A stretch of DNA of 53,269 nt from an uncultured Bifidobacteriaceae bacterium (GCA_964574525.1 CAZNOE010000002.1:1-53269), one strand, 5' to 3'; counted from the stretch's first letter, positions 2,622-48,197 are shown. Made by a program: numbers and translations. Notes: generated from the sequence alone by a model not told the origin.

Positions 2622-2629
2622 TTGCAGTC

Positions 2630-4843
2630 TCATTGGCGGAAGCCTTTCTCGGAGCCGGAGCGTTTGCCGTCGTCTTGGAGGCTGCCCGGCTTCCACTGGC
2701 GGGCGATCTCGATGTCGGCAGCGACCTTTTCCGTCAACTCAGTCACATTCACATAGCCGACACGGTTGTAGAGAGCCGGCACATAATGGGCGTCGCGAAT
2801 GGCCGCATATCGCTTCCAGTGAGCATGGGCGTCACCGAGATGGCGCAAAGCCGCCTCGTGTTCGAACTTGTCGCCGTTCACGTCAAACAGCGCCAGCGCA
2901 CAGGCGCCGCGAATCTTGGACGCATAGTAGCGGCCCAGCCAGGCTAGGGCTTCGCAGTCGGTGACGTTTTTCCGGAGTTCGGAGTCTCCCTTGGCCGCTT
3001 CGCGAAGCGGGTCGAGCGCGGCGAAAGTTTCCGCTGCCGCGCCGTCGAGGGCTTCGGCGATTTCGAGCGGTGTGGTTTCCGTCATCTGCTGGCGGGCGGT
3101 GAGGCGAGCGCGCCAGTCGCGAATGCACAGCACCTCCGAGCCCGGCATGGTGATGCCTTCCATGAAATGGCGCACGGTGTAAAAGCCCTTGCTCCTCCGA
3201 TGGCTCAGGCAGGCCTCGGGATACCATTTGAGGTCAATGTCCCCCCAGAAAAAACGCGTGGCCAGCGGCATGACCTGCGACGCACCTTGCAGAGCGCGGA
3301 AGAGATGCGGAGATGAAGCCTTGGGATGGCGGGCGGCGAGGACTTTCTCGAAATGGGAATCCGGCAGCGAGGGATCGTAGGCCAGCCGGCCCCAGAGCAT
3401 GAACGAATACCATTGCTTCTCCATCACCAGCGGGCGCTTGCCGGAATCAGGATTGCGCTCCAGGAAATCGCGGCCCCAGGTATATCCATCCGGCCCCATG
3501 TAAAATCCTGCGATTTTTTCAGCAGGGGGAATGTTGAGGATGTATTCGCGGGCGTAGGCGGGATCGCCGAAGCGGAAAGTGTAGATGTCGTCATTGCGCA
3601 CGGTGAGCCAGGTTTTCAATCCGGGCGCGATATTTTCCAGCAGCGGCTGAATGAATGGCGGTTTCGTGATCGAATACATGTGCGCCACCGAGTATTTGAA
3701 ACTGAAATCAAAAGTTCCCGGGTAGTCTTTGAAGGCGTCGAGGATGTCGCTTTGCGCCGTCCAGTGGAAGCGATGGATCATGTTGAACTTGCGCTTGGGA
3801 TCATCCTTCAACGCATCGCGCACGCCCTCGCCGTAGGTGTCCCACAGCCAGGCTTCCTTGACCTTGGAATCCATGTTATGCGGCATACCCTCGCCGGCGG
3901 TAATGCCCATGCCGGCGAGCAACGGGTAGGTCTTCACCGTCTCGCGCACAGTGGCGCGGAAATACTTTTTCGTGATCTCGTTGCCTAGATCGTCTGTGAT
4001 GCCGTGCTTGCCCTCGGCACCGAAGGTGAAGACGTTCCATGTGAAAATATAGATCTGAATGCCGCGGTCGGCGGCCTGCTGCATGACCCAGCGCCAGAAC
4101 TCAATCTTCTCGTCAATCGTCATGCGCTTCACCACCTCGTGGTTGGCGAGCATTTCCGGCCGAACAAAGCCGACGCCAGAGAAACTGAAGTTATCATCCA
4201 GCTTGGCACGGGTGCGCCAAACGTCGTTGAGTGCGACATCGGGAAACTCAGGAACTTTCACCAGTGATGGGAATGGGTGAAGACTCCAAAGCGAGAGCAC
4301 ATTGTAGCGATGGCGCGCCATGGAATCGAGGTAGTTGATCCAGAAATCCTTTTCCCACACCTCGGGGATGTTTGCTTGGGCGGAATCGGAGGTGTCCGTG
4401 TAGCTTGGCGTGCGCAGGTCGAGCGGGATGTTGAACTTGATGCCGCGTTTCGCGATGTGGGGTTTCTGGTCGGCATCCTTCAGCGCGTCGAGCGTGCCCG
4501 TGCGAATCGCCTCCGCAATGTCCAGCCCGCCATACATCGCGCCGGCCGCATCGGCCCCGCGCACCGTGATGGCGCGACGCCCGCCCTCGTTCTGCACGCG
4601 AATGCCATAGCTCTGCGCAGCGGCGTTGCCGCCCTGTTCAACGGTAATGGAAATTCGCGTCGCCTTTGCGTCATCGCCCAAAGTCATGCCTTTGGCTGCG
4701 GCTTCACGGCGGATTTCCTCGGCTGCAAACTTTCCCGGGCCGGCAGAAGCCGCGTCGAGAGAGAGCGTGAGGGTTTGGGCCGCGAAGGCTGACGCGGACA
4801 GGCCGCACAGCAGCGCGCAAAGTAAGGTGGTGGTCTTTTTCAT
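2630..4843 (-). CDS. Secreted glycosidase-like family protein, paralog 3
   Basis: 737-aa ORF with signal peptide MKKTTTLLCALLCGLSASAFA. Motifs GADAAGAMYGGLDIAEAI, KRGIKFNIPLD, RHRYNVLSLWSLHPFPSLVKV, FTWNVF, GITAGEGMP, KYSVAHMYS, RNDDIYTFRFGDP, FYMGPDGYTWGR, LWGRLAYDP, YYASKIRGA. Confidence 0.9.
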   Translation of the reverse strand: MKKTTTLLCALLCGLSASAFAAQTLTLSLDAASAGPGKFAAEEIRREAAAKGMTLGDDAKATRISITVEQGGNAAAQSYGIRVQNEGGRRAITVRGADAAGAMYGGLDIAEAIRTGTLDALKDADQKPHIAKRGIKFNIPLDLRTPSYTDTSDSAQANIPEVWEKDFWINYLDSMARHRYNVLSLWSLHPFPSLVKVPEFPDVALNDVWRTRAKLDDNFSFSGVGFVRPEMLANHEVVKRMTIDEKIEFWRWVMQQAADRGIQIYIFTWNVFTFGAEGKHGITDDLGNEITKKYFRATVRETVKTYPLLAGMGITAGEGMPHNMDSKVKEAWLWDTYGEGVRDALKDDPKRKFNMIHRFHWTAQSDILDAFKDYPGTFDFSFKYSVAHMYSITKPPFIQPLLENIAPGLKTWLTVRNDDIYTFRFGDPAYAREYILNIPPAEKIAGFYMGPDGYTWGRDFLERNPDSGKRPLVMEKQWYSFMLWGRLAYDPSLPDSHFEKVLAARHPKASSPHLFRALQGASQVMPLATRFFWGDIDLKWYPEACLSHRRSKGFYTVRHFMEGITMPGSEVLCIRDWRARLTARQQMTETTPLEIAEALDGAAAETFAALDPLREAAKGDSELRKNVTDCEALAWLGRYYASKIRGACALALFDVNGDKFEHEAALRHLGDAHAHWKRYAAIRDAHYVPALYNRVGYVNVTELTEKVAADIEIARQWKPGSLQDDGKRSGSEKGFRQ

Positions 4844-4872
4844 AGTGCTGAATAATATACGGGTGTCTCAAC

Positions 4873-7065
4873 TCACTTCTTGAACCCAGCCTCCGTGCCG
4901 GAGCGCTTGATCTGGACTTCATCAATGGAGCCGGGCTTCCAGTCGCGTGCCATCTGCACGTCGGCGGCGACGTCTTCGGTTTGCTTGGGAAGGTCCACCA
5001 AGCCGGCGCGGTTGAAGAGGACGGGCTGAACATATTGGCGAGTGTAGGCGGCGACGTAATTTTTCCAGTGGTCCAGGGCCGCTTCGAGATGCTGCACGGC
5101 GGAAGTCTGTTGTTTGGTGTCGCCTGATTTGTCGAAGAGCGCGAGGTCGCAGGCACCGCGAATCTTCGACGCGTAATAACGCCCGAGATGCGACATGGCT
5201 TCGATGTCGCCGAGTGTGGCGGTGTATTCCTTGGCGCTGGCAGCAGGCGTGATGGTGGCGCCCCGAAGCCCGGGCAACGCTTGAAGCGCCCTAGTGGCGT
5301 TGGCATCCAGAGTCGCGGCGATCTCCAGCGGCGTCACGCCTTGCGGCATCTGCTTTGCCAGCAGGCCCGTGCGCCACTGGATGATGTTTAGCACGCCGGC
5401 CCCGGGCATCGTGCCGCCTTCGACGAAATTGCGCACTGTGTGGAAGCCGTCTCTCCTCCGACAGGCTTCGGGAAACCACTTGACGTCAATATCGCCCCAA
5501 AAGAAACGCGTAATGTAGGGAAACGTCTTTGAAGCATCCGCCCACGCGGCGGTGAGTCGGGCAGTATCAGAGCCAGGGAAACGTGCGGCGGTGAGACGCT
5601 CGAAAGTCGCCGCGGGCAGGTCGGGTTCATAGGCGAGGCGACCCCACAGGGCAAAGGACAGCCATTGTTTTTGCATGACGGTCTGGCGCGGGCCATCGGG
5701 GTTCTTGGTGATGAAATCCCGCCCCCAGTGATAACCGTCGGGGCCCATATAGAAGCCGGCGATCTTGTCCTCGCCCGGGATGGCCTTGATGAAGGCGCGG
5801 GCGTAGTCCACGTCGGCCCAACGGAAGCTGTGAATGTCGTCATTGCGGATCGTAAGCCAACTGCGGAGTTTGGGACTGAGCAAGGGCAGCACCGGCTTGA
5901 TCATGCTGGGGTTGGGCACGGAATACATGTGGGCGATCGCGTATTTGTAACTGAGGTCGAGCGGACACGGAAGTTCAGCAAACTCGGTTTGAATTTCGCT
6001 CAAGCCGGCCATGTGGAAGCGATGAATGAGCCGGAACTTTCGGTCGGGAGTGTCCTTCAAGCCATCCCGAATACCCTCGCCGTAGGTTTGCCAGAGCCAT
6101 TGTTCCTTGGAGACTTCCTTGAATTCGTTTTCCGGCATGACTTCGCCGGCGGTGATGCCCATGCCAGCCAGCAGCGGATAGGTCTTGATGGTCTCCCGCA
6201 CCGCAGCGCGGTAATACTCGATCGTGCGAGGGGCCGTCTTGTCACTCGTGATTCCATCTTTGCCTTCCAGCGGACCAATAAACGCGTTCCAAGTGAACCA
6301 ATAGACGTCCACGCCGCGGTCCTTCGCCATCTGCATGACCTCGCGCAGGAACTGGATTTTCTCATCTATCGTCATCTTCTTCACGACGATGATCTCCTCC
6401 TTGTTCGCGCTGGCAGTGTGCACATCCGCCAAGGCAACACTCGGGAACTCCGGTACCTTCACGATGCTTGGGAAAGGATTCATGCTCCACCACGAGATGA
6501 GGTTGTAGCGATGGCGGGCCATGTCATCAAACTGCTCGCGCCAAAAATCCTTGCTCCACATTTCGGCGACGTTAAGCCGCGCGGAATCCGGCCACTCGCG
6601 CTGGGTGTAGGTGGGCGTGCGCACATCGAGCGGGATGTTGAACTTGATGCCGCGCTGCTTGATGTAAGGCGTGTTGTCAGAGTTCTTCAGCGTGTCGAAC
6701 GTGCCCGTGCGAATTGCCTCCGCGATGTCGAGCCCGCCATACATTGCGCCAGCGGCATCGGCTCCGCGCACCGCGATGACGCGACGCCCGCCCTCGTTCT
6801 GCACGCGAATGCTGTAGCTCTGAGCAACGGCATCGCCGTCCTTTCCGACGGTGATTGCGATGCGGGTCGCGTCAGCGGGCGCTTTCGCGTCGGCGCCGGT
6901 GACACTCATGCCCCGCGCCGCAGCCTCGCGGCGGATTTCCTCGCCGGCAAATTTCCCCGGCCCGGCGGCAGCCGGGTCGAGCGTGAGCAATAGAGTCTGC
7001 GCGGCGAAGGCCGAGCCAGACAAGGCGCAGAACAGCGCGCAGATTAAGAGACTATTCATTTTCAT
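4873..7065 (-). CDS. Secreted glycosidase-like family protein, paralog 4
   Basis: 730-aa ORF with signal peptide MKMNSLLICALFCALSGSAFA. Same motif series as 2630..4843 and clearly its closest relative in the window. Confidence 0.9.
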   Translation of the reverse strand: MKMNSLLICALFCALSGSAFAAQTLLLTLDPAAAGPGKFAGEEIRREAAARGMSVTGADAKAPADATRIAITVGKDGDAVAQSYSIRVQNEGGRRVIAVRGADAAGAMYGGLDIAEAIRTGTFDTLKNSDNTPYIKQRGIKFNIPLDVRTPTYTQREWPDSARLNVAEMWSKDFWREQFDDMARHRYNLISWWSMNPFPSIVKVPEFPSVALADVHTASANKEEIIVVKKMTIDEKIQFLREVMQMAKDRGVDVYWFTWNAFIGPLEGKDGITSDKTAPRTIEYYRAAVRETIKTYPLLAGMGITAGEVMPENEFKEVSKEQWLWQTYGEGIRDGLKDTPDRKFRLIHRFHMAGLSEIQTEFAELPCPLDLSYKYAIAHMYSVPNPSMIKPVLPLLSPKLRSWLTIRNDDIHSFRWADVDYARAFIKAIPGEDKIAGFYMGPDGYHWGRDFITKNPDGPRQTVMQKQWLSFALWGRLAYEPDLPAATFERLTAARFPGSDTARLTAAWADASKTFPYITRFFWGDIDVKWFPEACRRRDGFHTVRNFVEGGTMPGAGVLNIIQWRTGLLAKQMPQGVTPLEIAATLDANATRALQALPGLRGATITPAASAKEYTATLGDIEAMSHLGRYYASKIRGACDLALFDKSGDTKQQTSAVQHLEAALDHWKNYVAAYTRQYVQPVLFNRAGLVDLPKQTEDVAADVQMARDWKPGSIDEVQIKRSGTEAGFKK

Positions 7066-11110: not shown

Positions 11111-14100
11111 TCATTGTTTCACGCGAAAGAACTGCGCGGGGTTGGTGGTGGGTTGCAGGCGAGGACTGACTGCACCCGGAACCTCGCTCCAAGGCCCTGA
11201 CACGTTGGTCGTAGTTTGGAGCGTGCCACCCACCCATTCGAGTCTCAGTTGTCCCCCTTGGAGTACCGGCGGCTGAACCCAGCTCGGCGGGGCGGCGACC
11301 TGACCGACCGCCCAACTAACGGCCGCATCGAACAGCTTCAATCCGTCGGCGTTCAACGAGGCAAACGTGTTGTTTTGCAGAAACAGGTGGACACGCTGCG
11401 CGGGAGCGGTGCCAGCAGTCATCGCCGCCCCGGTTTCATAGGCGTAAAGGCAGGGATGACTGCTGCCATCATTCAGGCGGGCGATGGTGATCGGACTGCC
11501 GCCGGGTTCACCCCAGGAAAAATCGCCGGCCACGGTGGCCACCGTTCGAGTCCCGGCAGCCAGACCCGCAGCCAGGGGGTGACCAACGTTGGTGATGATC
11601 AGATTCCTCTGGGAAGCGGTGAAATAGCGGGCGGTGTTCGCGTCGCCGGTGAACCCGTAGTCGTCCTCCAATCCATACTCCCAGTTGATGACCGGCACGG
11701 CGACGTCGCGGAATTTCGTGTTCACCTGCGCGGAACTCACCGTGGCGGAGGTGAGGATCACGGCCTTGCCGGTGGCATCCGCTGTAGAGGCCAGATCGTC
11801 ACTGACGACCTGAACGGTGAACCCGTAGTTCTGGAGCCGGTTGCGGATGGCGGTGTCTGACGCTCCCAGGCTGGCGGCATCGCCCACGACGAGCAGCACG
11901 CTGTTGCTGCCCGGGGTATTAGTGATGACGGTCAGCGGCGCCGGGATGTCGGCGTTTACCCGGGTTTGAATGCCAGCAATGTCCACGACGGTCAGGCCCA
12001 TGCGGGTCAAGACCTGCTGGACATATTGGGTGGACCACAGGGCGGAATACTGACTCCAATGATTGGAGGCGGTAATCAAATGCGTGCGCGCGTTGGCGTG
12101 GTGGTTGGTCAGACCGGTGCTCTGATAGCGATAGAGGTCCACCGCCCCGCGAATTTTCTCCGCGTAATAACGCCCGAGCCAGCCCATCGCATTGATGTCG
12201 CCCAAGGTCAGGCGCAGTTCCTTGTTGGTACCCAGGCTCAAGGCCTGGACGCTCGCCAGGCCGTTGTCCGCGTATTGCTGCAACAGATCGGCGACCTGCT
12301 CGGGATTGAGTCTGCCGTTCGCGGCGTCGCCATTCACGTATTGCTTCACCGACATCAGCAAGGGGCGGTCACCATCCTCGCCCGACTGCATGGGATCCCA
12401 CTGCGGGTCAATAAAGCTCTGCACTGTTTTGAATCCAGAACTCGACCAGCACGCTTCGGGATACCATTGGAAATCCAGCGCGCCCCAGTAGAACCGGGTG
12501 AGCAACGGCAGAATCTTCGAGACGGATGCCCAGCCCTGGAAAAGGTTGCTGCTCGTGACTTCCGGGAATCGCTCACCCACAATCGCCTCGAAGCGGCTGT
12601 TGGGAATTGCCGGATCATAGGCCAGCCGGCCGTAGAGCAAAAAGGAATACCACATCTTCTCGATGACGAGCTGGCGGGGCGACTCGGGTTCCGTACTGAG
12701 GTATTCGCGGCCCCAGGTGTAGCCGTCCGGGCCCATGTAGAATCCGGCGATCTTCGAGAGGGTGGGGAGATTCGTCATATAGGCTCGGGCAAAGTCTGGA
12801 TCGCCCCAGCGCAGATAATACATGTCGTCGTTGCGGACGGTCAGGAAGACTCTCTTCCCGGCCGGGATCGTGTTGAACCAGTTGTTCTGGTAAATGAACT
12901 GCGGCTTTGTGGACGAATGCATGTGCGCCTGGGAATACTTGAAACTGAACGCGAGGGTGGAATCCGGATTGGTGGAACCGGACAGCGGCTGGAAATAGTT
13001 GATGATCTCGTTGAGATCCGCCTGATGCGCGCGATGGACCAGGCGGATGACCCGACCGGGCGCATGGTAAGGACTGGCCGCGTTCTGGGCGTCCGCCATC
13101 GCGTCGGAAACGCCCAAGCCGTAGGTATCCCACGCCCACTGTTCCTCTGCCGCGTTGCTGATCCCGCCCATGTTCTCGCCGGTCGTAATCCCAACGCCCG
13201 CCAGCAGCGGGTAGGTATTGAACAGGGCGCGCACGGATTTCCGGAAATAGTCCTTCGTGGTCACGTTTGAAGGGTCAACGGTGATGCCGTAACCGCTCGG
13301 CTCCGTGCCATAGACGAAGATATTCCAGGTGAACACGTAGAGATGGATGCCGCGATCCTTGGCGTACTGCATCACCCACCGCCAAAACGCGATCTTCTCG
13401 TCCATGGTCATCGTCTTCAACGTCGTCAACGTCCATGACGGATTATACATTCCCGTGCCGGTGCCGGAGGCATCCCACAAGGCTCCCGATTTCTGCTTCA
13501 CATCCGCCAGCGCCACGTTGGGATACTCAGGCACGCGCACGAGCGAGGGAAACGGGTGAAGACTCCACAGCGAAAGCAAATTGTAGCGATGCCGGGCCAT
13601 GTTATCAAGGAAGCCGGTCCAGAAATTGGTTTCCCACATGTTGGCGATGTTGGCCTGCGCGGAACTCGAATCGTCCGAGTAACTGGGGCTGCGCGCGTCC
13701 AGCGGGATGTTGAACTTGATGCCGCGGTTGGCGAGATGCGGATTGGTCTGGCGATTGGTCACGCCGGCCAAGCCGTCTGCCAACTTCACCGCCTCCGCCA
13801 ATTCAAGGCCGCCATACATCGCTCCGGGAGCATCCTGGCCAATGACCCACCAGTTGGTCGCCGCACCGTCCACCACCCGTTGGATCGCGTAACCTTGGTT
13901 GGTAATCCCCGCGATGGTCGGCATGCCCGGCACGCTGGCATCCGAGGTGGTCAGGATGATGCGCACCGATTGCGTGGCCCCGGACGGATCGCTGAGTGGC
14001 AGGTCAGTCACCGAATGGCCGGTCTGCACCAGCGCCGCCTTCAGATCGCCTCCGGCGAAACTGATGGTGCGAACGCCGGAATCATATATCAAGGCAGCGG

Positions 14101-14179
14101 GCGTTTGCGCTTGCGCCACGGTGCTGCCCACGATTCCGGCCAGCAGCACCGCCGTTGCTTTCAACTTGGAGCCAATCAT
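11111..14179 (-). CDS. Secreted glycosidase-like family protein, paralog 5, extended by an unassigned alpha/beta domain (11306-11902) and the C-terminal '...FFRVKQ' module (11114-11305)
   Basis: The ORF-track start at 14197 is TTG; the first ATG is 14179 (MIGSKLKATAVLLAGIVGSTVAQA signal). The first ~740 aa are collinear with 37180..39480 and show high identity by eye. The extra ~280 aa begin at ...SVLLVVGDAASLG. Confidence 0.88.
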   Translation of the reverse strand: MIGSKLKATAVLLAGIVGSTVAQAQTPAALIYDSGVRTISFAGGDLKAALVQTGHSVTDLPLSDPSGATQSVRIILTTSDASVPGMPTIAGITNQGYAIQRVVDGAATNWWVIGQDAPGAMYGGLELAEAVKLADGLAGVTNRQTNPHLANRGIKFNIPLDARSPSYSDDSSSAQANIANMWETNFWTGFLDNMARHRYNLLSLWSLHPFPSLVRVPEYPNVALADVKQKSGALWDASGTGTGMYNPSWTLTTLKTMTMDEKIAFWRWVMQYAKDRGIHLYVFTWNIFVYGTEPSGYGITVDPSNVTTKDYFRKSVRALFNTYPLLAGVGITTGENMGGISNAAEEQWAWDTYGLGVSDAMADAQNAASPYHAPGRVIRLVHRAHQADLNEIINYFQPLSGSTNPDSTLAFSFKYSQAHMHSSTKPQFIYQNNWFNTIPAGKRVFLTVRNDDMYYLRWGDPDFARAYMTNLPTLSKIAGFYMGPDGYTWGREYLSTEPESPRQLVIEKMWYSFLLYGRLAYDPAIPNSRFEAIVGERFPEVTSSNLFQGWASVSKILPLLTRFYWGALDFQWYPEACWSSSGFKTVQSFIDPQWDPMQSGEDGDRPLLMSVKQYVNGDAANGRLNPEQVADLLQQYADNGLASVQALSLGTNKELRLTLGDINAMGWLGRYYAEKIRGAVDLYRYQSTGLTNHHANARTHLITASNHWSQYSALWSTQYVQQVLTRMGLTVVDIAGIQTRVNADIPAPLTVITNTPGSNSVLLVVGDAASLGASDTAIRNRLQNYGFTVQVVSDDLASTADATGKAVILTSATVSSAQVNTKFRDVAVPVINWEYGLEDDYGFTGDANTARYFTASQRNLIITNVGHPLAAGLAAGTRTVATVAGDFSWGEPGGSPITIARLNDGSSHPCLYAYETGAAMTAGTAPAQRVHLFLQNNTFASLNADGLKLFDAAVSWAVGQVAAPPSWVQPPVLQGGQLRLEWVGGTLQTTTNVSGPWSEVPGAVSPRLQPTTNPAQFFRVKQ

Positions 14180-14260
14180 GTGTGCACTTTTCGACAACCG
14201 TATCTCTTGCCCTTCCTTGCATGGCCTCCGTTCGCGCAGAAGGCATCGTCTTATTGCAAA

Positions 14261-17435: not shown

Positions 17436-18212
17436 CTACAGACGGGGCGAGTACGGGCTGAAGAGCCAGAATGGTACACCCTTCGTACCCTCCGCCTTCA
17501 GTTTCCGGCTCTCCACATGAGTGTCGAAAAACAGAACGTTTACCTGCCCGTTGTGACGTTTCTCGTTCGCGTGCATCATCCGCGCCGAAGACACTGGGTT
17601 GGCCTGATTCAGGATATTGAAGGTGGTGGTTTGCGGGGTCCAAATGTTCCAATTCACATACGATTTACCTTTCGCCCACGTCTCGTTAATCTCGGTAATG
17701 TAACCCACCTCGACCGGCCGGGGAATGCTGGCCAGCTTGTGATAGAGCGTTTCCGGGAAGGACTGGGGCAGGGGTTGGCTCGCCGGGATGTCCAAGTCGT
17801 TGATGATGTAATGCAGCGGCTTGACATCATTAGTAGAAGATCTGACAGCAGGGCATTGGAAGAACTTGTAGCCTGCAAAATAATTATCCAACTTGGTCTC
17901 GTCGGTCGCGTCAGCCCCCTCGAATTGCTTTCCCCCAACATACGGCGCCAGCATGTTCGCCCACATGTTGCCTGTACTGAAGTAGTCGCCAGGAACATAG
18001 TCTTTGTAGTCGTTGGCATAAAGTTGCGCGGCGATGCCATACTGCTTGAGGGTATTGAGGCACTGAATCCTCTGCGCCTTCTCCTTGGCCCTGGCCAACG
18101 CGGGCAGGAGCATGGCGGCGAGGATCGCAATGATGGCGATGACCACAAGCAATTCGATGAGCGTGAAACCGGGCCAGGCGCCCGGCATCGAGGAACGTGA
18201 GTTTCGTTTCAT
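17436..18212 (-). CDS. Prepilin-type N-terminal cleavage/methylation domain protein, DUF1559 / H-X9-DG class (variant H-X9-DT)
   Basis: N-terminus ...PG|[32 protein letters not shown]-terminal [17 protein letters not shown] has the H-X9-DG spacing, with T in place of G. Confidence 0.85.
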
Positions 18213-18244: not shown

Positions 18245-18439
18245 TCAGATGGTGTCCATGAGTTTTTCCGTTTTTTTCCTGTGATTTTTTGCGCCGTCTC
18301 CCCCGGACAGGCGACTCTTGGCCTTGGCCCAAGCCGGCAACAACATGGCGGGGAGAATCGCGATGATCGCGATAACCGCGAGCAATTCGATCAACGTGAA
18401 CGGACAAGAAGAAACCGAACTTTTCACATTCGTGCTCAT
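18245..18439 (-). pseudogene. Truncated prepilin-type/DUF1559 gene fragment (leader and hydrophobic helix only)
   Basis: 64-aa [45 protein letters not shown]. The nucleotide sequence aligns with the 5' ends of 17436..18212 and 18775..19527 up to AKAKS, followed by 21 unrelated residues and a stop. There is no H-X9-DG domain. Confidence 0.6.
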
Positions 18440-18690
18440 GAACCAGTTGCGCCGCAGGCGACACCACCACAGGATCGCTGCGGCAGACGACCGTTAAACT
18501 TCGACAGCAATGTGCCACAGGGGGGCGAGTTTTGATAGCTGCACAATGATGTAGGATTCCTCGTCTCTCCCATTTGGGGAAGCGAGAGGGACTCGGCGTC
18601 ACCGTTGGCGGGCACATGCTGAGCCGGAAAGGCTGCATGTCGGGCATCGAAGAATGGCCCTGACGTACGGGCGGGGAAGTCGTGATCGGA
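18440..18690 (-). promoter_or_regulatory. Conserved non-coding leader, copy A (upstream of the DUF1559 fragment/gene)
   Basis: Aligns with 19528-19790 along its whole length, with small indels that break every reading frame. Its 23-nt core ttgatagctgcacaatgatgtag (18532-18554) is identical to 19632-19654. A hairpin (18451-57 gccgcag / 18478-84 ctgcggc) lies 12 nt upstream of the ATG. Confidence 0.55.
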
Positions 18691-18774
18691 GTCGCCCAGG
18701 TCGGCCACTAAACGCTGGATGCCATTCGGGTTCATCATCGGATCGGATTTGCACGGTGTGGTGGTTAAGCAGGT

Positions 18775-19527
18775 TTACTGCGCGGAAGACGGATCAAACA
18801 TTCGGGAAGGGACGCCGGTCGGGGTCAACTTCCGGACCTCGGTATGCCCGTCGTAGAATACGAAACTGGTTGCGCCGTCGTGGCGCTTGTCGGTCGCGCG
18901 CATGATGCGAGGATCCGGGTTGGCAGCAGGGATAGGATTGAAGGGATAATCCTGAAACCGGTAGAAATCGTAATGCGTATAGCCTCCGTTCGCGATCTCG
19001 GTGCTGTTCACCTCTGCGATGTAGGCGGTGGCCGTGGGACGCTTGATGGACGGCAACTTGTGGGTGGGCGTGTAACCCGATCCAGTTCGTTCATCCAGCG
19101 AATTCACCACGTAGTGCAAGGCATGCTTGAACTGAGTGTTCGTGCGAAGGGTGGGACATTGGTAGGTGGGAATCTGGGAGAAGAACTGATCCTGTTCCGG
19201 ACGGTTGGGGTTCGTCGGCTGGCCCGAGGTTTCCAGCACCGTCGGCAGCTTCCTGCAGATGTAGGGGGCAAGCATGTTGGCAAAGAGGTACCCGTTTAGC
19301 GACTGATCTCCCGGAACTTGGTCGTTGTTGTCCCCGGCATAAAGGTGCGCCGCTGTCCCCATCTGTTTCAAATTATTGAAGCATTGGACTGTTTGGGCCT
19401 TGCTCTTGGCCTTGGCCAAAGCCGGCAATAGCATGGCGGCGAGAATCGCGATGATGGCGATGACCACGAGCAATTCGATCAACGTGAACGCACGCGAAGC
19501 AACAGAAAGATTCTCTTTCGCTTTCAT
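18775..19527 (-). CDS. Prepilin-type N-terminal cleavage/methylation domain protein, DUF1559 / H-X9-DG class
   Basis: ORF 18775..19731 trimmed to ATG 19527 ([44 protein letters not shown]). C-terminal [17 protein letters not shown] is an exact H-X9-DG motif. The upstream part of the ORF falls in the conserved non-coding leader. Confidence 0.85.
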
Positions 19528-19790
19528 GCTGACAGCCCAGTTTGCACTGCAAGCGACACGTGGACGTACGGACCGCAGCAGTGCATGATCTTCAAGCTTA
19601 CCCAGCACTAATGCCACAAGGGCGGCGGGTATTGATAGCTGCACAATGATGTAGTATCGGCCTGGTCGCGCCCGTTCCGGGAAGCGAGGGGGACTCGGCA
19701 TCACCGCCGGCGGGCACATGCTGGGCGACAAGCCTACAAGCCCGGCATCGAAACACGGCCAGCGGCGTACTCACGGTGAAGTCGTGATGG
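19528..19790 (-). promoter_or_regulatory. Conserved non-coding leader, copy B
   Basis: Homologous to 18440-18690. Core at 19632-19654. The hairpin at the equivalent position uses a different stem sequence (19543-50 tgcactgc / 19578-85 gcagtgca) and lies 16 nt upstream of the ATG. Confidence 0.55.
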
Positions 19791-19813: not shown

Positions 19814-20959
19814 TTATTTCCGAAGTTTGCACTTCAAGGCCAGCAGACGGCCGACCTGTTCGGCGCAACGCTCCAACATGCCGGGGCCACGTCGGGGCAG
19901 TTCCGTTTCGGCGACCGATTCTTCCAACGCGGAAAAAAACGCGGCGATGCCCGCCCGGTGGACGTTGCCAGCGTCCGGCCCAAGTGAACCGCAGATGGCA
20001 ATGACCGGGATGCCGAGCTTTTGAGCGACCCGGGCCACACCGGCCGGCGCTTTGCCAAAAATGGTCTGCCCATCGAGGCGGCCTTCGCCAGTAATAACTA
20101 GATCGCAACCAGCCAGCTTGCGTTCGAGGCCGATGGCGTGTGTGACCACATCCACACCCGGGCGCATTCGCGCCTTGAGAATGGCGTCCAGTCCCGCGCC
20201 CAAACCGCCCGCCGCTCCGGCTCCCGGCAAATTCGCGACTTCCACTCCCAAGTCATTTTGAAGGACTGCCGCCAGCCGTTTCAGGCCAGCATCAAGCTGC
20301 TTCACCATCGCCGGGGTGGCGCCCTTTTGCGGGCCGTAAACCCGGGCGGCTCCGCGCGGGCCGCACAAGGGATTATCCACGTCGCACGCCACGGAGATGG
20401 TGGTGTGTTTCAACCGCGCATCAAGCCCGGACACATCAATGCGCGCCAGCCGGACCAGCGCACCGCCACGATCCGGCAGCTCCCGGTTGCGCGCATCAAG
20501 AAATCTGGCGCCGAGAGCGCGAGCCAGCCCCATGCCGCCGTCGTTAGTGGCGCTGCCGCCAATGCCAATGACAATCTCCTGGACGCGGCGGTCCAGTGCA
20601 GCACGAATCAGTTCACCCGTGCCGCGCGAAGTGGTGAGCATCGGATTGCGCTCCGGTGGTTTGAGCAACGCCAGCCCGCTGGCCAGCGCCATTTCGATCA
20701 CGGCCGTCCGGGCGTCGCCAGTCAGGCCGAAGATGGATCGGATTTTGCGACCCAGCGGATCGGTGACGCGGCAGGGCACGGATTTACCACCGGTTGCAGC
20801 CACGATGGCCAGCAGGGTGCCGTCGCCCCCGTCGGCCATGGGAAGCTTGACGATGGAAAGGCCGCGCAACGCCTTGCGAAGGCCGCGCTCAATGCAAGCA
20901 GCGGTCTCGGCAGCGGTGAGACTGCCTTTGAAGGCATTGGGAGCGATGGCGATTCTCAC
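19814..20959 (-). CDS. Glycerate kinase (GlxK/GarK family)
   Basis: Motifs IAIAPNAFKGSLTAAE, IGGSATNDGGMG and VITGEGRLDGQTIFGKAP. Start chosen at GTG 20959 (VRIAIAP...), which gives the usual ~380-aa length. The ORF-track start at 21094 would add 45 non-conserved-looking residues, so the start is uncertain. Confidence 0.85.
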   Translation of the reverse strand: MRIAIAPNAFKGSLTAAETAACIERGLRKALRGLSIVKLPMADGGDGTLLAIVAATGGKSVPCRVTDPLGRKIRSIFGLTGDARTAVIEMALASGLALLKPPERNPMLTTSRGTGELIRAALDRRVQEIVIGIGGSATNDGGMGLARALGARFLDARNRELPDRGGALVRLARIDVSGLDARLKHTTISVACDVDNPLCGPRGAARVYGPQKGATPAMVKQLDAGLKRLAAVLQNDLGVEVANLPGAGAAGGLGAGLDAILKARMRPGVDVVTHAIGLERKLAGCDLVITGEGRLDGQTIFGKAPAGVARVAQKLGIPVIAICGSLGPDAGNVHRAGIAAFFSALEESVAETELPRRGPGMLERCAEQVGRLLALKCKLRK

Positions 20960-21249
20960 AAGCGCATCGTGGCACGGGATTCGGATCCTATTCCAGTTCT
21001 TGTTTTTCCATCTGCGGCGACAGGATATTCGGGCACCCGGACCAGGGGACAAGCCCCACTTGACTGCATGATTGTGCAGGTTTTCAAAGCTCACGCCGCT
21101 GTGTCAACCTCATCACCGCATGGTGACGATCATTCCCTGAGGTCCGTGGGTGCCGGAGTCGTGTGCGGTTCTAAGCGGTCTGTGAGCATGAGTGCGGAAA
21201 AAGTGTTCTTAGCATCTTGTTGCCTGGACGCTGGAGAGTAATCAGAGCG

Positions 21250-28599: not shown

Positions 28600-30765
28600 T
28601 TAATTGGAGGAAGTGAGCGGCGCTTTGGCGAGTTCAATGTCCTTTTCCACCGCCGGGATGAGCGCGGCCCACGAGAACGGGTCTATCGAGTTGTGAAGCA
28701 CGGGCAGTTGGTTGAACCGTCCGCCCAAGTCGGCGAGCCGTTTCCAATGCGTCAACGCCGTTTCCAGTTCCGTCACCGCGCGCTGCTGTTGTTTCAAATC
28801 CTGCCTGGCCCGGGCTGTAGCCAGCGCCACTCCGGCGCGCAGCTTGGCGGCGAAGTAATCGCTGTAGGCGCACCACGCTTCGAGGTCCGTAAGCTCGCAA
28901 TCCAGTGTGGGCGAAACCGCGCCTTGTCGCCGCACCTTGGCAACCAGTTTCAGGGCGGCCGCGCGGTCACGGTCGAGTTGGCCAGCAAGTTCCAGCGGCG
29001 AAACCGCGCCAGCCGGGACTTGCCCGGTCTTTACGAAGTCGGCGATGTTCACGTAGCGTTTCGTGTCGAGCACCGGATGCTTGATGAACGAATCAATGTC
29101 GAACAGCTTTCGCGGGAGCTTGTCACGGTCAGTCCAGGACGAAAAGCCTTCGGTGTAAAGCGAGCCATCCCACGTGCCCTTGCGAAACGATGCGAAGCGC
29201 AGCGGGACGCGGCTGGCCAGTTTCCACGCAGCGAGCAAATCCTTTCCCGCGCCTTTGCCAAATCGTGCGTCGAACATCGCCTCGAATCGCGCGTCCGGTG
29301 TGGCGGGATCGTAGAGCAGTTGTCCCCAGACTGCATAGAAAAGCCATTGCCGCTGGAAAGCCCATTGCCACGTCTTGTGCGGGCCGTCCTTCGAAATGTA
29401 ATCCAGTGCCGGGATGTAACACTCCGAGCCGATGATGGCGCCGCCGACGTAATCCTTGTCGCTCTGCCGTTGGACGAATTCCCGCACAAAGTCCGGCTGC
29501 CCCCAGCGCAGGATGTAGATGTCCTCATTGCGCATCGTCCAGACCACCTTGTGCCGCGTGGGTGGCGGATTCCAATAGGCATCGGAGAGCGGGCCGCCGT
29601 GAACATGAAACAAATCGGGCGAGGAATGGGCGTGCGACCAGTTGTGTTTGAACTCCACATAGACCGGCCCGGTGATGTTGTTCGAGAGCGACTCGATCTG
29701 GGCGCGCGTGCGACGGTCGTTTTCCACGCTGGTCGTTCCACCTGATCGGGTGTCAGCCGAAAGCGGCGCACGGTAGATGAACTTCGCCGGCCGCTTGGCC
29801 TCGGCGATGCCGGCGAAAAATGTCTGGTCCAGCCAATCGCGCCGCTGATCCGGCGTCATGCCGCCCATGCGTTCGCCCAAGGTGATGCCCAGGCCGGTCA
29901 GGTCAGGATATTCATCCAGCAACTGCGTGATGACTTCCTTGGTGTAACGCACCACCAGATCCCCGGTGAAATCATCCTGCCCGCCGATGTGACTCAAACT
30001 CACGCTCCAGGGGGCGACGTTGTGCGCGCGGGAAAATTCCGGCGAGACGAAGATGTTCCAGTTAAGCAGATAGGTTTCAATGCCGCGTTCCTTCGCCATC
30101 GCGAAGATGCCGCTCCAAAGCTTCTTCCATTCAGCCAGCTCGGCGTCGTTGAACGGGCAGGCCTCCGGAAAGTTCTTGGGCCGGATCATGTAGGTGTAGG
30201 GGTGCAGACTCCAAAGCGAGAGCACGTTGAACCGGTTCTCGGCCATCATGTCGAGGAACGCTTCCCAATACCGGAGGTCCTTGCAGGTCTCCTGGTGTTG
30301 CTCAAGGGCCGGACTCGTTCGATAGGCAGACCACGGCAGGTTGAACTTGATCGCGCGAAAATCGAGCTGCGCCTTGACCGTGCGCTCCTTGATCTTGTTC
30401 CAAGGCGTGCCCATGCGGATTTGCTCCGCCACCTCCAGCACGCCATACATGGCCCCGCGCTCGTCGCCGGCGGTGATCTTCAGTCCACGGCGCGCCTTGA
30501 CCCTTTGAAAGCCGTCCGGGCCAATCGTGGCGAGCGCCGTGGGATCAACGGTGACGGCAATCCCGGGAGTTGGATCGGGCGCAGGATGCGCCGTTCGCCT
30601 CAGAGAATCACCTTGTTGTTGAAGTGCCGCGTCCAGTTTGCCCAGCGCGAAGCGAAGCATCGGAGAATCGGGCGCCGAGACGCTGACTTCGGCAGCTTTC
30701 AACGTTGCTGCGCAGGCCAACAGCGTGGCCGGTAGTAGTGCGAGTCGGATGAGGTTGAATTTCAT
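28600..30765 (-). CDS. Secreted glycosidase-like family protein, paralog 6 (most divergent)
   Basis: ORF 28600..30957 trimmed to ATG 30765 (MKFNLIRLALLPATLLACAATLKA signal). Motifs GDERGAMYGVLEVAEQI, AIKFNLP, NRFNVLSLWSLHP, LNWNIFV, GITLGERMGG, RNEDIYILRWGQP, VWGQLLYDP, AAKLRAG. Confidence 0.85.
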   Translation of the reverse strand: MKFNLIRLALLPATLLACAATLKAAEVSVSAPDSPMLRFALGKLDAALQQQGDSLRRTAHPAPDPTPGIAVTVDPTALATIGPDGFQRVKARRGLKITAGDERGAMYGVLEVAEQIRMGTPWNKIKERTVKAQLDFRAIKFNLPWSAYRTSPALEQHQETCKDLRYWEAFLDMMAENRFNVLSLWSLHPYTYMIRPKNFPEACPFNDAELAEWKKLWSGIFAMAKERGIETYLLNWNIFVSPEFSRAHNVAPWSVSLSHIGGQDDFTGDLVVRYTKEVITQLLDEYPDLTGLGITLGERMGGMTPDQRRDWLDQTFFAGIAEAKRPAKFIYRAPLSADTRSGGTTSVENDRRTRAQIESLSNNITGPVYVEFKHNWSHAHSSPDLFHVHGGPLSDAYWNPPPTRHKVVWTMRNEDIYILRWGQPDFVREFVQRQSDKDYVGGAIIGSECYIPALDYISKDGPHKTWQWAFQRQWLFYAVWGQLLYDPATPDARFEAMFDARFGKGAGKDLLAAWKLASRVPLRFASFRKGTWDGSLYTEGFSSWTDRDKLPRKLFDIDSFIKHPVLDTKRYVNIADFVKTGQVPAGAVSPLELAGQLDRDRAAALKLVAKVRRQGAVSPTLDCELTDLEAWCAYSDYFAAKLRAGVALATARARQDLKQQQRAVTELETALTHWKRLADLGGRFNQLPVLHNSIDPFSWAALIPAVEKDIELAKAPLTSSN

Positions 30766-30775
30766 AGGTGATGGT

Positions 30776-31774
30776 TTACTTCGCATGCGCCGGCTGGAAC
30801 GGCCGCGCCGACGGTTTATCCGCACTCGGAAAATCAGCGGGGATCTTTTGCGTGACCTTGCCCGTGGCCGCCCATTCCGTGCCGCGCAGAAAAGTGGTGA
30901 TGAATCCCACGCCCTCGAACGCCTCCGTGTCATGGCCGAGCGTGGTATGAAAGACACGGCCCTTCTGGTACTCCACCGTCATCAACATCGGCTCGTGGCG
31001 GCCGGCGGCCTTGAGTGCGGGTGAATCGCAGGCCGTCGCGAGGATGGTCAGGTTCTCCGCCGGGCCGCGCAGGTGCGAATAACATTCGTCCTGGGTGTGC
31101 ATCCAAAAATCCGGCAGGCCTTTTGTGATGGGATGCTCATGGTTGCGGATGGTCACGACGAATTCATTCTGTGGCCCGTGTCTGCCCGCCTTGCCCGGAC
31201 TCGTGTCGCGCACGATTTTGCCCTCGTTGTTGTAATACACGAACGGCCCGTCCTTCTCCGTGCGGTCGCCCCAGCCGCCCAAAGCGATCATTTTGTTGAA
31301 CTCGGTCCAGTTGCCCCAACTGTTGTCCGCAGCGTGGACGGAAACAAATCCGCCGCCGCCCGTCACGTATTTTTCAAAGGCCCGCTGCGTTGCCTCCGGC
31401 CAGTCGGCAGCCCGCCAACCGAAGTTGCTGATGACGACCGCGTATTTGGCGAAGTCTGGTTTGAAATTCGGATCGGGCTGCGGCTCTTTCACCATTTCAG
31501 ACTCACCCGCGCCGGCCAGCGGCAGAAACGCCTTCTCGCGCTCGGCGCTCCAGATGAATTTCGTGCGCGCCACGTCCACCGTGAACAACCCCGTGGCTTC
31601 GAGGTATTGCTTCATCATCACCGTGGACTTCGGCCAGACCTGGTGGTTGTTCTGACCGTCAACGATCAGGGCTTTCAATTTATCCGCCGCGTGCAGGGCC
31701 GGGGTCAAGCCCAGCAGCAGCACGATGGCTGTGGTGCGGAAAAGAGTTTTTCCGGAGTTAACTGGCTTGTTCAT
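30776..31774 (-). CDS. ThuA-domain protein (trehalose-utilisation-like), secreted
   Basis: Signal peptide ...IVLLLGLTPALHA, then KALIVDGQNNHQVWPKST, typical of PVC-type ThuA-domain proteins. The start ATG overlaps the upstream stop (ATGA, 31771-31774). Confidence 0.75.
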   Translation of the reverse strand: MNKPVNSGKTLFRTTAIVLLLGLTPALHAADKLKALIVDGQNNHQVWPKSTVMMKQYLEATGLFTVDVARTKFIWSAEREKAFLPLAGAGESEMVKEPQPDPNFKPDFAKYAVVISNFGWRAADWPEATQRAFEKYVTGGGGFVSVHAADNSWGNWTEFNKMIALGGWGDRTEKDGPFVYYNNEGKIVRDTSPGKAGRHGPQNEFVVTIRNHEHPITKGLPDFWMHTQDECYSHLRGPAENLTILATACDSPALKAAGRHEPMLMTVEYQKGRVFHTTLGHDTEAFEGVGFITTFLRGTEWAATGKVTQKIPADFPSADKPSARPFQPAHAK

Positions 31775-32597: not shown

Positions 32598-34850
32598 TCA
32601 GCCCTTCTCGGCGATGGCGATGTCGAGTTGCGGCCCTGAATCGTCGAACCAATCAAACGTTTTCTGGCCGGAGATAAACAGCTTGTTTGTGTAGCTGGCA
32701 TCCAATTCCTTGGCGTAATTGCGCCAAGCGGTCAGGGCGTTCTTCAGGTGGGCGACAGCGTCTTTTTGGTGCTGGCTCACGCCTGTCTTGCGGAATAAAC
32801 CGAGTGCCACCGCTCCGCGAATCTTGGCGGCGTAATACTGCCCGAGCCGAGCTTGCGTCCGGATGTCGCCGAGAGTCTCGCGGAGTTCCACATTTCCGCC
32901 ATTACTCACACCGGAAATCGTTGTCAGCGCTTTTTCGGCCAGCTCGTCCAGTTGGGTTGCCACCTGCAAGGGAGTGGTCCCCGAGGTCTTCTTCTGGGAA
33001 ACAAAATCAGGAATGCCGATGATTCCCGAGCCTTCCATGCCGCCCCATCGTTCATCCAGGAAAATATTTACGGTATGGAAACCCTGAATGCTCTTGTCCA
33101 ACAGGTTGCCTCTGCATCCTTCGACCCACCACATAAAGTCCCACGGGACGTACCGAGTTCTGTTCACAAGCGGTATGATTTGGGAGGCAGACTGCCAGGA
33201 ATCATATAGAGCGGTGGCGTCCGAAAGCTGGAAGCGATGTTTGATGAGTCCTTTGAGCAATTCGGGAGAGGTCTCGGGATCGTATCCGAGCCTTCCCCAC
33301 AAGAGGAAGGAATACCAGTGCTTGTCGTTTTCCAACTGCCGGGGCGAAGTGGGATTCTTGCTCGCGCTTTCCCTGCCCCAGCAAAATCTGTCTGAACCCC
33401 AGACGTAGCCCGCAGTCCTGCCGTCGCCGGGAAAGTTCAAGACTGCCTGCTTCACATACTCCGGGTCGCCCCAGCGCACGAGGAAGATGTCGTCATTCCG
33501 GAGATTCCACCAAGTCTTCATTCCGGCTGGCGTCACATCCAGCACATCCTTTTTCGCAAAAGGCGGATTCGGCGCAGAGTAAAGGCGCGCTTTCGAGTAT
33601 TTGTATTCCAAGTCAAAGCCATCGGGTAGTTTATTGAAACGATTGCCGATATACTTGAAATCCGTCAGCCAGTAGCGGTGGACGAACCCGATCTTGCGGT
33701 CGGGATTCATCTTCTTGTAGTCGAGGATGCCTTCGCCATAAACATCCCAGCACCATTGCTCCTTGAAGTCGTGATCTTTGTTCTTGTCGCCAAAATTTTC
33801 TCCGGGGCACATGCCCAAGCCGGCCAACTTCGGGTAAGTGAGAAAAAGCTGCGTGACGGCTTTGCGGATATAATCCTTGGTGATCGCGTTGGTCGGGCTG
33901 TCCGTCAAACCATACTTCGTGTCTTCGCTGCCATACACATGGATGTTCCAGACATACCACCAAACCTCGATTCCCCGGTCTTGCGCGTAGGCCATGACCT
34001 TTTGCCAGAAAATTATTTTTTCGGCATGGGTCATTTTCTTGATCAGTTCCCCACGCTTGTCATAGACATCATCCAAGGCCACATCCTCGTAGCCGGGCAC
34101 TTTGACCAGGGTAGGAAAAGGATGCCGGTTCCAAAGACTGAGAACGTTGTAACGCTGCTTGGTTATGGTATCGAGATACTCCTTCCAGAAGTTCAAATCC
34201 CACACGTGTTTGAAGTTTTCCCGACCGGATGTTCCATTGTCATCGAAACTAGGCTGTCGTTTATCAAGCGGTATGTTGAATTTAATTCCCCGCTTCGCGA
34301 TGTAAGGCTTGTGGTCGCCATTAGCGACGTCTGCGATTGAGCCGGCAGACGCAATCTCGCCGATGTCTATGCCGCCATACATCGCGCCGACGCGATCACC
34401 GCCGATGGCCCAAAAACCCTTCTTGCCGCCGTTATAGGTCTTCCTGAGAGCGTAGGTTTCCTCGCCCATAGTGCCGGGTTTTTGGCCGCCGCGGGTCTCC
34501 AACAGTCGCAGCACAGGTTGAGAGGTGTTCTTGGCGATAACCACATAACACGTATCCGGCGCAGCGGGCATTTCAGCGAATGTTTTCAGAGTAGCCGGAT
34601 TGTGGCCGATCGAGCTGAGGGTCTTCTGAAGCTCCCGGGCGGAGAATTCAATGGAGGGTTCCGTGTTGTCATAATAGACCACAACGGCTTCGCGCGAAAT
34701 CCTGGTCGGAACGGCTGCCTTTTTCTCCCCCGGAGTCGGTGTCGTGGTTGCACTGATATTGGCAGCGGCAGCCGTTGTGTTTGCTCCTGCCATTCCTCCT
34801 GCTATCAAGAGTAGCAGAAATGCCTGCAGTAGTCTGTTTGTCGTTTTCAT
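32598..34850 (-). CDS. Secreted glycosidase-like family protein, paralog 7
   Basis: 750-aa ORF with signal peptide MKTTNRLLQAFLLLLIAGGMAGA. Motifs GGDRVGAMYGGIDIGE, KRGIKFNIPLD, KQRYNVLSLWNRHPFPTLVKV, YVWNIHVYG, CPGENFG, RNDDIFLVRWGDP, LWGRLGYDP, YYAAKIRGA. Confidence 0.88.
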   Translation of the reverse strand: MKTTNRLLQAFLLLLIAGGMAGANTTAAAANISATTTPTPGEKKAAVPTRISREAVVVYYDNTEPSIEFSARELQKTLSSIGHNPATLKTFAEMPAAPDTCYVVIAKNTSQPVLRLLETRGGQKPGTMGEETYALRKTYNGGKKGFWAIGGDRVGAMYGGIDIGEIASAGSIADVANGDHKPYIAKRGIKFNIPLDKRQPSFDDNGTSGRENFKHVWDLNFWKEYLDTITKQRYNVLSLWNRHPFPTLVKVPGYEDVALDDVYDKRGELIKKMTHAEKIIFWQKVMAYAQDRGIEVWWYVWNIHVYGSEDTKYGLTDSPTNAITKDYIRKAVTQLFLTYPKLAGLGMCPGENFGDKNKDHDFKEQWCWDVYGEGILDYKKMNPDRKIGFVHRYWLTDFKYIGNRFNKLPDGFDLEYKYSKARLYSAPNPPFAKKDVLDVTPAGMKTWWNLRNDDIFLVRWGDPEYVKQAVLNFPGDGRTAGYVWGSDRFCWGRESASKNPTSPRQLENDKHWYSFLLWGRLGYDPETSPELLKGLIKHRFQLSDATALYDSWQSASQIIPLVNRTRYVPWDFMWWVEGCRGNLLDKSIQGFHTVNIFLDERWGGMEGSGIIGIPDFVSQKKTSGTTPLQVATQLDELAEKALTTISGVSNGGNVELRETLGDIRTQARLGQYYAAKIRGAVALGLFRKTGVSQHQKDAVAHLKNALTAWRNYAKELDASYTNKLFISGQKTFDWFDDSGPQLDIAIAEKG

Positions 34851-34928: not shown

Positions 34929-34969
34929 AAAAAAGCGGGGCTTGCCGGCTTGTCGCTGGAAAGCCCCGC
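34929..34969 (-). terminator. Intrinsic-terminator-like hairpin with U-tract between 35201..36475 and 32598..34850
   Basis: Minus strand reads GCGGGGCTT-(17 nt)-AAGCCCCGC followed by TTTTTT (plus-strand A-run 34929-34934; stems 34935-43 / 34961-69). It lies 79 nt upstream of the ATG at 34850. Confidence 0.55.
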
Positions 34970-35139
34970 CAACCCAACCCATACCCACAGTCCCAAATCT
35001 CCACAACACGCGCACTGTTGGCACTCGTGCAGGAATCGCTGCACATCACTAGGCGTCTCCGTCCAGAACCGGGCGACCACGGCGTCGGCCACACCCGTAG
35101 ACCGCGACAGCAAACAATCGTCAAGACGCGGCAGGTCAA

Positions 35140-35182
35140 GTACCACAGCGGCGCTGGTCTTGACACCTGCACAATGATGTAG
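35140..35182 (-). promoter_or_regulatory. Third copy (core only) of the conserved leader motif
   Basis: ttgacacctgcacaatgatgtag (35160-35182) matches the 18532-18554 / 19632-19654 core at 21/23 positions. The flanking ccacag-N11 is also shared. It lies 19 nt past the stop of 35201..36475 and ~310 nt upstream of ATG 34850. Confidence 0.45.
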
Positions 35183-35200
35183 CCAAAAGGGCTTTAGATT

Positions 35201-48196: not shown

Positions 48197-48197
48197 G

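Follow-up and report, generated by a model that had tools for sequence, protein, structure and literature searches.

What is conserved in front of the DUF1559-type genes of this locus, and at which level would it act? The window (the whole 53,269-nt stretch of DNA analysed) carries two similar leaders on its minus strand, which the initial annotation described as a ~250-nt conserved unit, either a promoter with a structured 5′ UTR or a cis-regulatory RNA, belonging specifically to the DUF1559 gene family. Along the minus strand, the locus is organized as glycerate kinase, leader A, gene A, leader B, a 64-aa ORF, gene C and a 993-aa gene (Table 1). The surrounding island encodes a sulfatase, 3-keto-disaccharide hydrolases, GFO/IDH/MocA oxidoreductases, DUF4832 and DUF5060 proteins, and an alpha-galactosidase. 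Homologues of the glycerate kinase align only from residue 45–46, so that its true start is probably the GTG at 20959; the divergent intergenic region behind it thereby widens to ~290 nt. The best matches of the 750-aa protein encoded at 32598–34850 come mostly from Opitutaceae and other Opitutales MAGs (73–80% identity), and the named DUF1559 hits are called Verrucomicrobia or Limisphaerales; by protein similarity, the window is assigned to an uncultured, Opitutaceae-like lineage of Verrucomicrobiota.

Two further features of the island were recorded. At least seven paralogues of 730–1028 aa without a Pfam domain (423–7065, 11111–14197, 28600–30957, 32598–34850 and 37180–39480) have the DNA repeat families D1, D5, D9, D14 and D15 in common, and one pair of segments, 11939–12863 and 37219–38143, matches at 73–80% with a constant offset of 25,280 nt. 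These proteins probably constitute an uncharacterised family of glycan-active enzymes that has expanded in the island. An apparent 387-nt gap at 48197–48583 (minus strand) reads like a putative small glyoxalase/epimerase-like coding sequence rather than intergenic DNA.

Table 1. Features of the DUF1559 locus and of the additional element copies in the window
Feature	Coordinates	Strand	Details
Gene C	17436..18212	-	DUF1559, 258 aa; first intact gene downstream of leader B
64-aa remnant ORF	18245..18439	-	No Pfam hit; first ~110 nt (to 18330) 84% identical to the gene A 5′ end, rest unrelated; marks the end of the duplicated segment
Leader B	18440..18688	-	Duplicated copy of leader A, by alignment
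Hairpin B	18451..18484	-	7-bp stem GCCGCAG/CTGCGGC (18451-57/18478-84); ends 11 nt before ATG
TGTGGCA box, copy B	18513..18519	-	12 nt after core
Core, copy B	18532..18554	-	Exact; identical to copy A
Gene A	18775..19527	-	DUF1559, 250 aa; downstream of leader A; Pfam N_methyl (prepilin-type N-terminal) and SBP_bac_10/DUF1559
Leader A	19528..19790	-	Non-coding; between glycerate kinase stop (19814) and gene A ATG (19527)
Hairpin A	19543..19585	-	8-bp stem TGCACTGC/GCAGTGCA (19543-50/19578-85) with inner GCGG/UCGC helix; ends 15 nt before ATG
TGTGGCA box, copy A	19612..19618	-	13 nt after core
Core, copy A	19632..19654	-	Exact; CTACATCATTGTGCAGCTATCAA
Glycerate kinase ORF	19814-21094	-	Stop at 19814; as listed begins at GTG 21094
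Element copy E	21060..21160	+	Core CTGCATGATTGTGCAGGTTTTCAA at 21064-21087, TGTGTCA at 21100-21106; divergent region between glycerate kinase (probable start 20959) and alpha-galactosidase-like gene (ATG 21250)
Terminator-like hairpin	34929..34969	-	Between element C and ATG 34850; 15-nt arms, 87% complementary, then T6
Element copy C	35084..35187	-	Begins 18 nt past an enolase-superfamily stop; the 750-aa gene 32598-34850 follows at 309 nt

Alignment with MAFFT confirmed that the two leaders correspond over their full length, with 75% ungapped identity and 10 gap columns. The gaps make up several indels of 1–3 nt, so the leaders keep no common reading frame and their conservation is non-coding, as had been proposed. 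Identity is 76.7% upstream of the 23-nt core, 100% within it, 84% between core and box, 60% before the hairpin and 64% in the hairpin region. The similarity runs on past the ATG, with 84% identity over ~110 nt of coding sequence (A, 19527–19418; B, 18433–18330), and then collapses to about 48%. Altogether, ~370 nt are collinear (A, 19790 to 19418; B, 18688 to 18330), crossing feature boundaries and ending sharply, and this passage into coding sequence followed by collapse establishes a tandem segmental duplication. Copy B consists of a duplicate of leader A and of the opening ~37 codons of gene A, placed ahead of gene C, and most of the long-range A/B similarity stems from this event, separately from the short motif described below. 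Leader A is followed immediately by an intact DUF1559 start, as annotated, but the start behind leader B is that of the truncated remnant. Because the leader (75%) is no better conserved than the pseudogenised coding piece (84%), conservation over 250 nt alone says nothing about function, and the supposed ~250-nt functional unit is mostly a duplication that includes about 37 codons of a gene.

What the duplication leaves to be explained is the core, CTACATCATTGTGCAGCTATCAA, whose identity in both leaders was borne out at the annotated positions, and the TGTGGCA box that follows it, present in both leaders at a spacing slightly wider than the reported 10–11 nt (Table 1). The shuffled window yielded no match to the core, even with 3 mismatches allowed. 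A 23-nt identical run is, taken alone, only marginally unusual against a 75% background (estimated p about 0.1). What establishes the core is its independent recurrence elsewhere, at 35160–35182 (minus strand), at 21064–21087 (plus strand) and on the metagenome contig L095. The first of these, in copy C, is identical at 21 of 23 positions (mismatch scan; none expected by chance) and has the box CTGTGGTA at 35141–35147. Copy E was found by nhmmer (E=4.6e-6) with a profile built without it. Copy D lies on L095 between two divergent sulfatase genes, one of which starts 128 nt downstream. It has the core of copy C without a change, the box TGTATGGCA and, upstream of the core, ~70 nt with significant similarity to copy A (z=10); these three features show L095 to be a true relative. 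Across all copies, the shared unit is bipartite and ~45 nt long, CT(A/G)CAT(C/G)ATTGTGCAG-N3/4-TCAA, then 11–13 nt, then (C/T)TGTGG(C/T)A, with TGTGTCA as the box of copy E.

Five copies are thus known, four in the window (A, B, C and E) and one on L095 (D), and the motif precedes at least four different operons. All four window copies fall in the ~5% of the window that is non-coding, and four of its six intergenic gaps longer than 100 nt contain one. Every copy is intergenic and oriented as the next gene, with 92, 104, 128, 162 and 309 nt from core end to ATG. Beyond the core, flank similarity is significant only for A–B, A–D (upstream) and A–E, and weak for C–E. The genes downstream are unrelated in sequence, their common theme being secreted or carbohydrate-active proteins. 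The claim that the element is specific to the DUF1559 family does not hold: the core also precedes the gene for the 750-aa protein (which has no Pfam domain), an alpha-galactosidase-like gene and a sulfatase gene. Copies A (19555–19654, minus strand) and E (21060–21160, plus strand) are mutually inverted, flank the glycerate kinase gene and have similar downstream flanks (z=4.2). An inverton or shufflon formed by these two copies was considered and rejected; the repeats are imperfect and a recombinase is lacking.

Tandem duplication as the whole explanation, with the A/B likeness being young neutral sequence and core and hairpins arising by chance, has become very improbable. It accommodates a duplicated block that includes coding sequence and a leader no better conserved than the pseudogenised piece, as well as the marginal length of the identical run and the finding that about 5% of random window 55-mers hold a 7-bp perfect stem. 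For the core, however, it is refuted by copies C, D and E, the three more copies beside unrelated genes, and for the hairpin it is opposed by the compensatory, same-register pairing described below (simulation p about 0.001–0.002).

Position, orientation, the presence of two copies in divergent regions and sharply peaked conservation together favour a promoter or operator. Copies D and E stand between divergently oriented genes, an arrangement that demands a promoter for the downstream gene. Conservation is sharply peaked on core and box, and flank similarity is confined to the pairs named above, which is the pattern expected of a protein-binding site. We therefore read the ~45-nt motif as a promoter/operator module common to several glycan-degradation operons, which would form a lineage-specific regulon of an uncultured, Opitutaceae-like verrucomicrobium; the A/B tandem duplication is a separate matter, and the stem-loop is local to the DUF1559 leaders. 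We hold this reading with middling confidence, belief and doubt being about equal. A single regulator, which may be an alternative sigma factor of the ECF type or else an activator/repressor, would act at the core and would jointly switch on several island operons, among them the DUF1559 pseudopilin-like genes with large secreted proteins, the 750-aa protein family, the alpha-galactosidase and the sulfatases. We infer from sequence that the motif is bound as DNA, and the same holds for the position of the transcription start site and the identity of the regulator. Of the original alternatives, a promoter with a 5′ leader agrees with a non-coding, sense-oriented, upstream element made of a core and a second box, but a 250-nt structured RNA does not. 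Several observations count against the promoter/operator reading: a terminator-like hairpin stands between copy C and its gene; alignable blocks 55–85 nt beyond the core (copies A, B, C and E) exceed a simple binding site; no copy has a recognisable sigma-70 promoter, the sigma-54 spacing is seen in C and D only and a regulator gene is missing from the window, as set out below; the best-conserved bases fall in what would be the spacer of a sigma-E-like promoter, which is unusual unless an operator lies there; and there are only five copies, two of them duplicates.

Known promoter classes were compared with the copies. With TTGACA, 16–18 nt and TATAAT, at least 9 of 12 matches and A2 and T6 of the -10 included, no sigma-70 promoter was found inside any copy. 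For sigma-54 (TGGCAC-N5-TTGC, fixed GG-N10-GC spacing), a TGGCA-like box is present in copies A–D, but the GG-N10-GC spacing occurs in C and D only and is absent from A, B and E. ECF (sigma-E-type) promoters combine a -35 'AAC' with a short -10, for example TCAAA or CGTC, across a spacer of 16–17 nt. All copies contain xxxACT(A/G)/CCT-N16/17-TCAA(A/T/G), a resemblance judged against a general consensus rather than a curated model, in which the -35 is without the characteristic AAC and conservation is highest in the 'spacer'. By inspection, two layouts are conceivable: xxxACT(A/G)-N16/17-TCAA(A), reminiscent of sigma-E-type promoters, or a weak -10 with a TGTG extension immediately behind the box, in which case the core would be centred near -41, as a class II activator site is. 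A regulator gene was not found in the window. In a related Opitutaceae MAG, an ECF sigma gene (Sigma70_r2/r4_2; L298, 1–1046) followed by a 323-aa gene heads a cluster of sulfatase, PSD/PSCyt and DUF1501 genes, and this proximity of an ECF sigma gene to a sulfatase cluster makes ECF-style regulation plausible in the lineage. Three other candidate signals were also considered. A sigma-28-like GCCGATA upstream of the core was rejected, as it occurs in A and D only and has no -35. A 16-bp palindromic operator, CTGCA-N6-TGCAG, is perfect in copy E only and mismatched in A–D, which leaves it a mere possibility. A conserved small ORF starting from the GTG inside the core was rejected too; the peptides range from 16 to more than 100 aa and are frame-shifted between A and B. 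When a chimera of spurious ORFs crossing the element was compared with the protein database, so as to reach further copies by way of miscalled genes, nothing scored.

Does the element act as RNA? Hairpins A and B lie exactly where they were annotated, but they end slightly closer to the ATG in B and within the reported 12–16 nt only in A (Table 1). They have five pairs in common and occupy the same register in the MAFFT columns. Two pairs are compensatory, with both partners exchanged (A-U to G-C, U-A to C-G), and the inner GCGG/UCGC helix shows a G-U to A-U change. Some 7-bp stem arises in the region in about 4–6% of neutral simulations at the local divergence, whereas one that has at least 7 bp, keeps the register and carries two or more double changes does so in only 0.1–0.2%; the A/B stem-loop is therefore probably under selection, its covariation being confined to two duplicated copies. 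At the corresponding position in copies C, D and E, no equivalent was found, so the stem-loop belongs to the DUF1559 leaders and not to the element family. Placed 11–15 nt upstream of the start, it probably acts on DUF1559 mRNAs only, through stability or translation initiation. Folds immediately 5′ of the core in A, B and D proved inconsistent, and a conserved hairpin there was rejected.

Family-wide structure is a different matter. The Rfam search proposed in the initial annotation matched no family to the element: the whole window gave no gathering-level match, JUMPstart RF01707 and riboswitches included, and the surroundings of copies A/B, C and E gave chance-level hits only (10–13 bits, E between 4 and 8). 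Fold z-scores of leaders A, B, C and E against shuffles were -0.10, -0.26, -0.19 and -0.57, no better than background. RNAalifold on the five copies returned -6 kcal/mol with an unfavourable covariation term of +1.88. The 10-bp helix that it proposes would pair the invariant AUUGUGCAG of the core with a block ~60 nt downstream, and the changes in it are one-sided (U-G to U-A); the left arm never varies, so there is no true covariation in this helix. A covariance model could be built from the five copies as suggested, yet it recovers only those five in 271 kb (window and related loci). A family-wide structured cis-regulatory RNA is not supported, and of the original claim of selection on RNA structure, only the A/B hairpin, with its register and two compensatory pairs, survives.

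The terminator-like hairpin behind copy C and the alignable downstream blocks are unexplained by a plain promoter and keep a transcribed-leader (antitermination) account alive. This strong hairpin lies about 190 nt after the copy C core, 230 nt beyond the preceding gene's stop and 80 nt short of the following ATG; it may mark a long 3′ UTR, belong to a small RNA unit or work as an attenuator. An intrinsic terminator or attenuator, defined as a GC-rich hairpin with a direct U tract, was not found in A and B, where AACUGG... follows without a T run; a hairpin with T6 occurs in copy C only. If the element were transcribed and acted as RNA or on the non-template strand, it would serve as a leader signal for long glycan-degradation operons, through antitermination of the ops/JUMPstart or EAR kind or as a protein-binding leader, with the core pairing ~60 nt downstream. 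Copies A, B, C and E have alignable blocks reaching ~85–100 nt beyond the core, which would suit such a leader, but copy D lacks them. Likewise, the best core:downstream duplex falls at the same place in all five copies (position 68–75), but its energy is ordinary compared with shuffled sequence (z from -1.6 to +0.7). The 10-bp helix is paired in 89.6% of cells as opposed to 23–68% with a slid partner, but it was derived from the same sequences and its left arm is invariant. Transcription through the element would also agree with the compensatory changes in the A/B stem-loop and with the location of copies A, B and C within same-strand gene runs that have no clear terminator upstream; against it stand whole-leader fold z-scores of about 0, the positive covariation term, and the lack of an Rfam match, of ops (GGCGGTAG) and of any boxA-like sequence. 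On balance, we regard this account as unlikely, though a serious candidate. Its more specific form, in which the core is transcribed within a new ops/EAR-like leader signal (by AUUGUGCAG RNA pairing or as non-template DNA) and recruits an antitermination factor across 10–18-kb glycan operons, through terminators such as that after copy C, is distinctly improbable.

The distribution of the element was examined beyond the window. Scanning 185,579 species genomes for the exact core (21 specified bases) gave no hits; a looser scan of the same genomes gave at least 118 stretches, all at the bare-pattern level of about 15–18 bits, and Verrucomicrobiota were absent from the organisms of the matches listed. 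The metagenome scan returned 70 core hits, about the number estimated by chance, of which only L095 is a real relative; the others have no flank similarity and a nearby TGTGG at the chance rate. Viral contigs gave no core hits, and plasmid blastn gave no match. Among relatives of the downstream genes, upstream DNA is unrelated and without the core at seven loci with gene A orthologues (80–87% amino-acid identity), and the element is absent from 13 Opitutaceae/Verrucomicrobiota loci with orthologues of the 750-aa gene and from ten loci with relatives of the L095 sulfatase. The search for further 23-mers advocated in the initial annotation was therefore productive, adding three copies, with no exact match among the species genomes; since further copies exist, the element stands as a family, although a very narrow one.

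The region 5′ of gene A-type DUF1559 genes varies among relatives. Orthologues of gene A (P0003, P0004, P0008 and P0009) have an N-terminal leader peptide of ~35 aa, MN..(I/M)ELxxSTQP..., before FTLIELL; gene A itself has only 13 aa before FTLIELL (window 19490–19527), and its native 5′ end seems, from this comparison, to have been exchanged on arrival of the element. On L154, from a sister taxon, the gene A orthologue is preceded at 52 nt by the end of a 555-aa DDE_Tnp_1 transposase (369–2036); on L152 and L155, 5′ of the P0002 gene, other ORFs are annotated over the same 330 nt. This region looks like a rearrangement hot spot.

These patterns bear on the possibility that the element is a repeat which duplication, recombination or a non-autonomous mobile element has dispersed, whose gene adjacency is incidental and which would act at most as an accidental outward promoter. 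Mosaic flank similarity (A–D upstream, A–E downstream), absence from orthologous positions in sister taxa, which implies recent gain, the seemingly replaced 5′ end of gene A, the IS transposase at the equivalent position on L154, and the inverted arrangement of copies A and E around the glycerate kinase gene are all compatible with it. However, no inverted repeats bracket any copy, as a MITE or IS end would require, and no transposase domain was found in the window; plasmid and viral collections hold no match; each of the five copies lies between genes and reads in the direction of the gene that follows; and an unchanging core with flanks that have diverged to 60–77% identity argues for selection on the core. 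We consider a dispersed repeat quite unlikely.

Should the promoter/operator reading be correct, the motif would define a co-regulated glycan-degradation regulon comprising DUF1559 pseudopilin-like genes, sulfatases, an alpha-galactosidase and the 750-aa family, and would offer a handle for the regulator search and for assigning a function to the 750-aa proteins by association. Its value is limited by its narrow distribution, five copies in one uncultured lineage. To our knowledge, gene regulation in Verrucomicrobiota is almost uncharted, and our search of the literature on promoter motifs, whether for the phylum or for DUF1559 genes, turned up nothing pertinent.

Three kinds of known system invite comparison. 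Like the Correia/CREE, ERIC and BOX repeats, the element is an intergenic family with mosaic flanks in a narrow lineage and could bring a promoter; unlike them, it has no terminal inverted repeats or target duplications, keeps a strict sense orientation and numbers only five copies. With JUMPstart/ops (RfaH targets) and EAR RNA, it shares its position as a conserved element upstream of or between genes of long polysaccharide-related operons and, at one copy, a subsequent terminator that would need read-through. It differs in lacking GGCGGTAG and any Rfam hit at gathering or E<=10, and the operons here are catabolic rather than biosynthetic. In Bacteroidota/PVC, motifs of polysaccharide-utilisation operons include targets of ECF sigma/anti-sigma pairs, hybrid two-component systems or LacI/GntR-type regulators. 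Compared with regulon promoter motifs, the element fails as sigma-70 and sigma-54, resembles sigma-E only in its -10 (TCAAA) and has an alignable stretch longer than a typical site; yet, like the regulon motifs upstream of polysaccharide-utilisation operons, it is a short sense motif placed 90–310 nt upstream of non-homologous operons of related function within one lineage.
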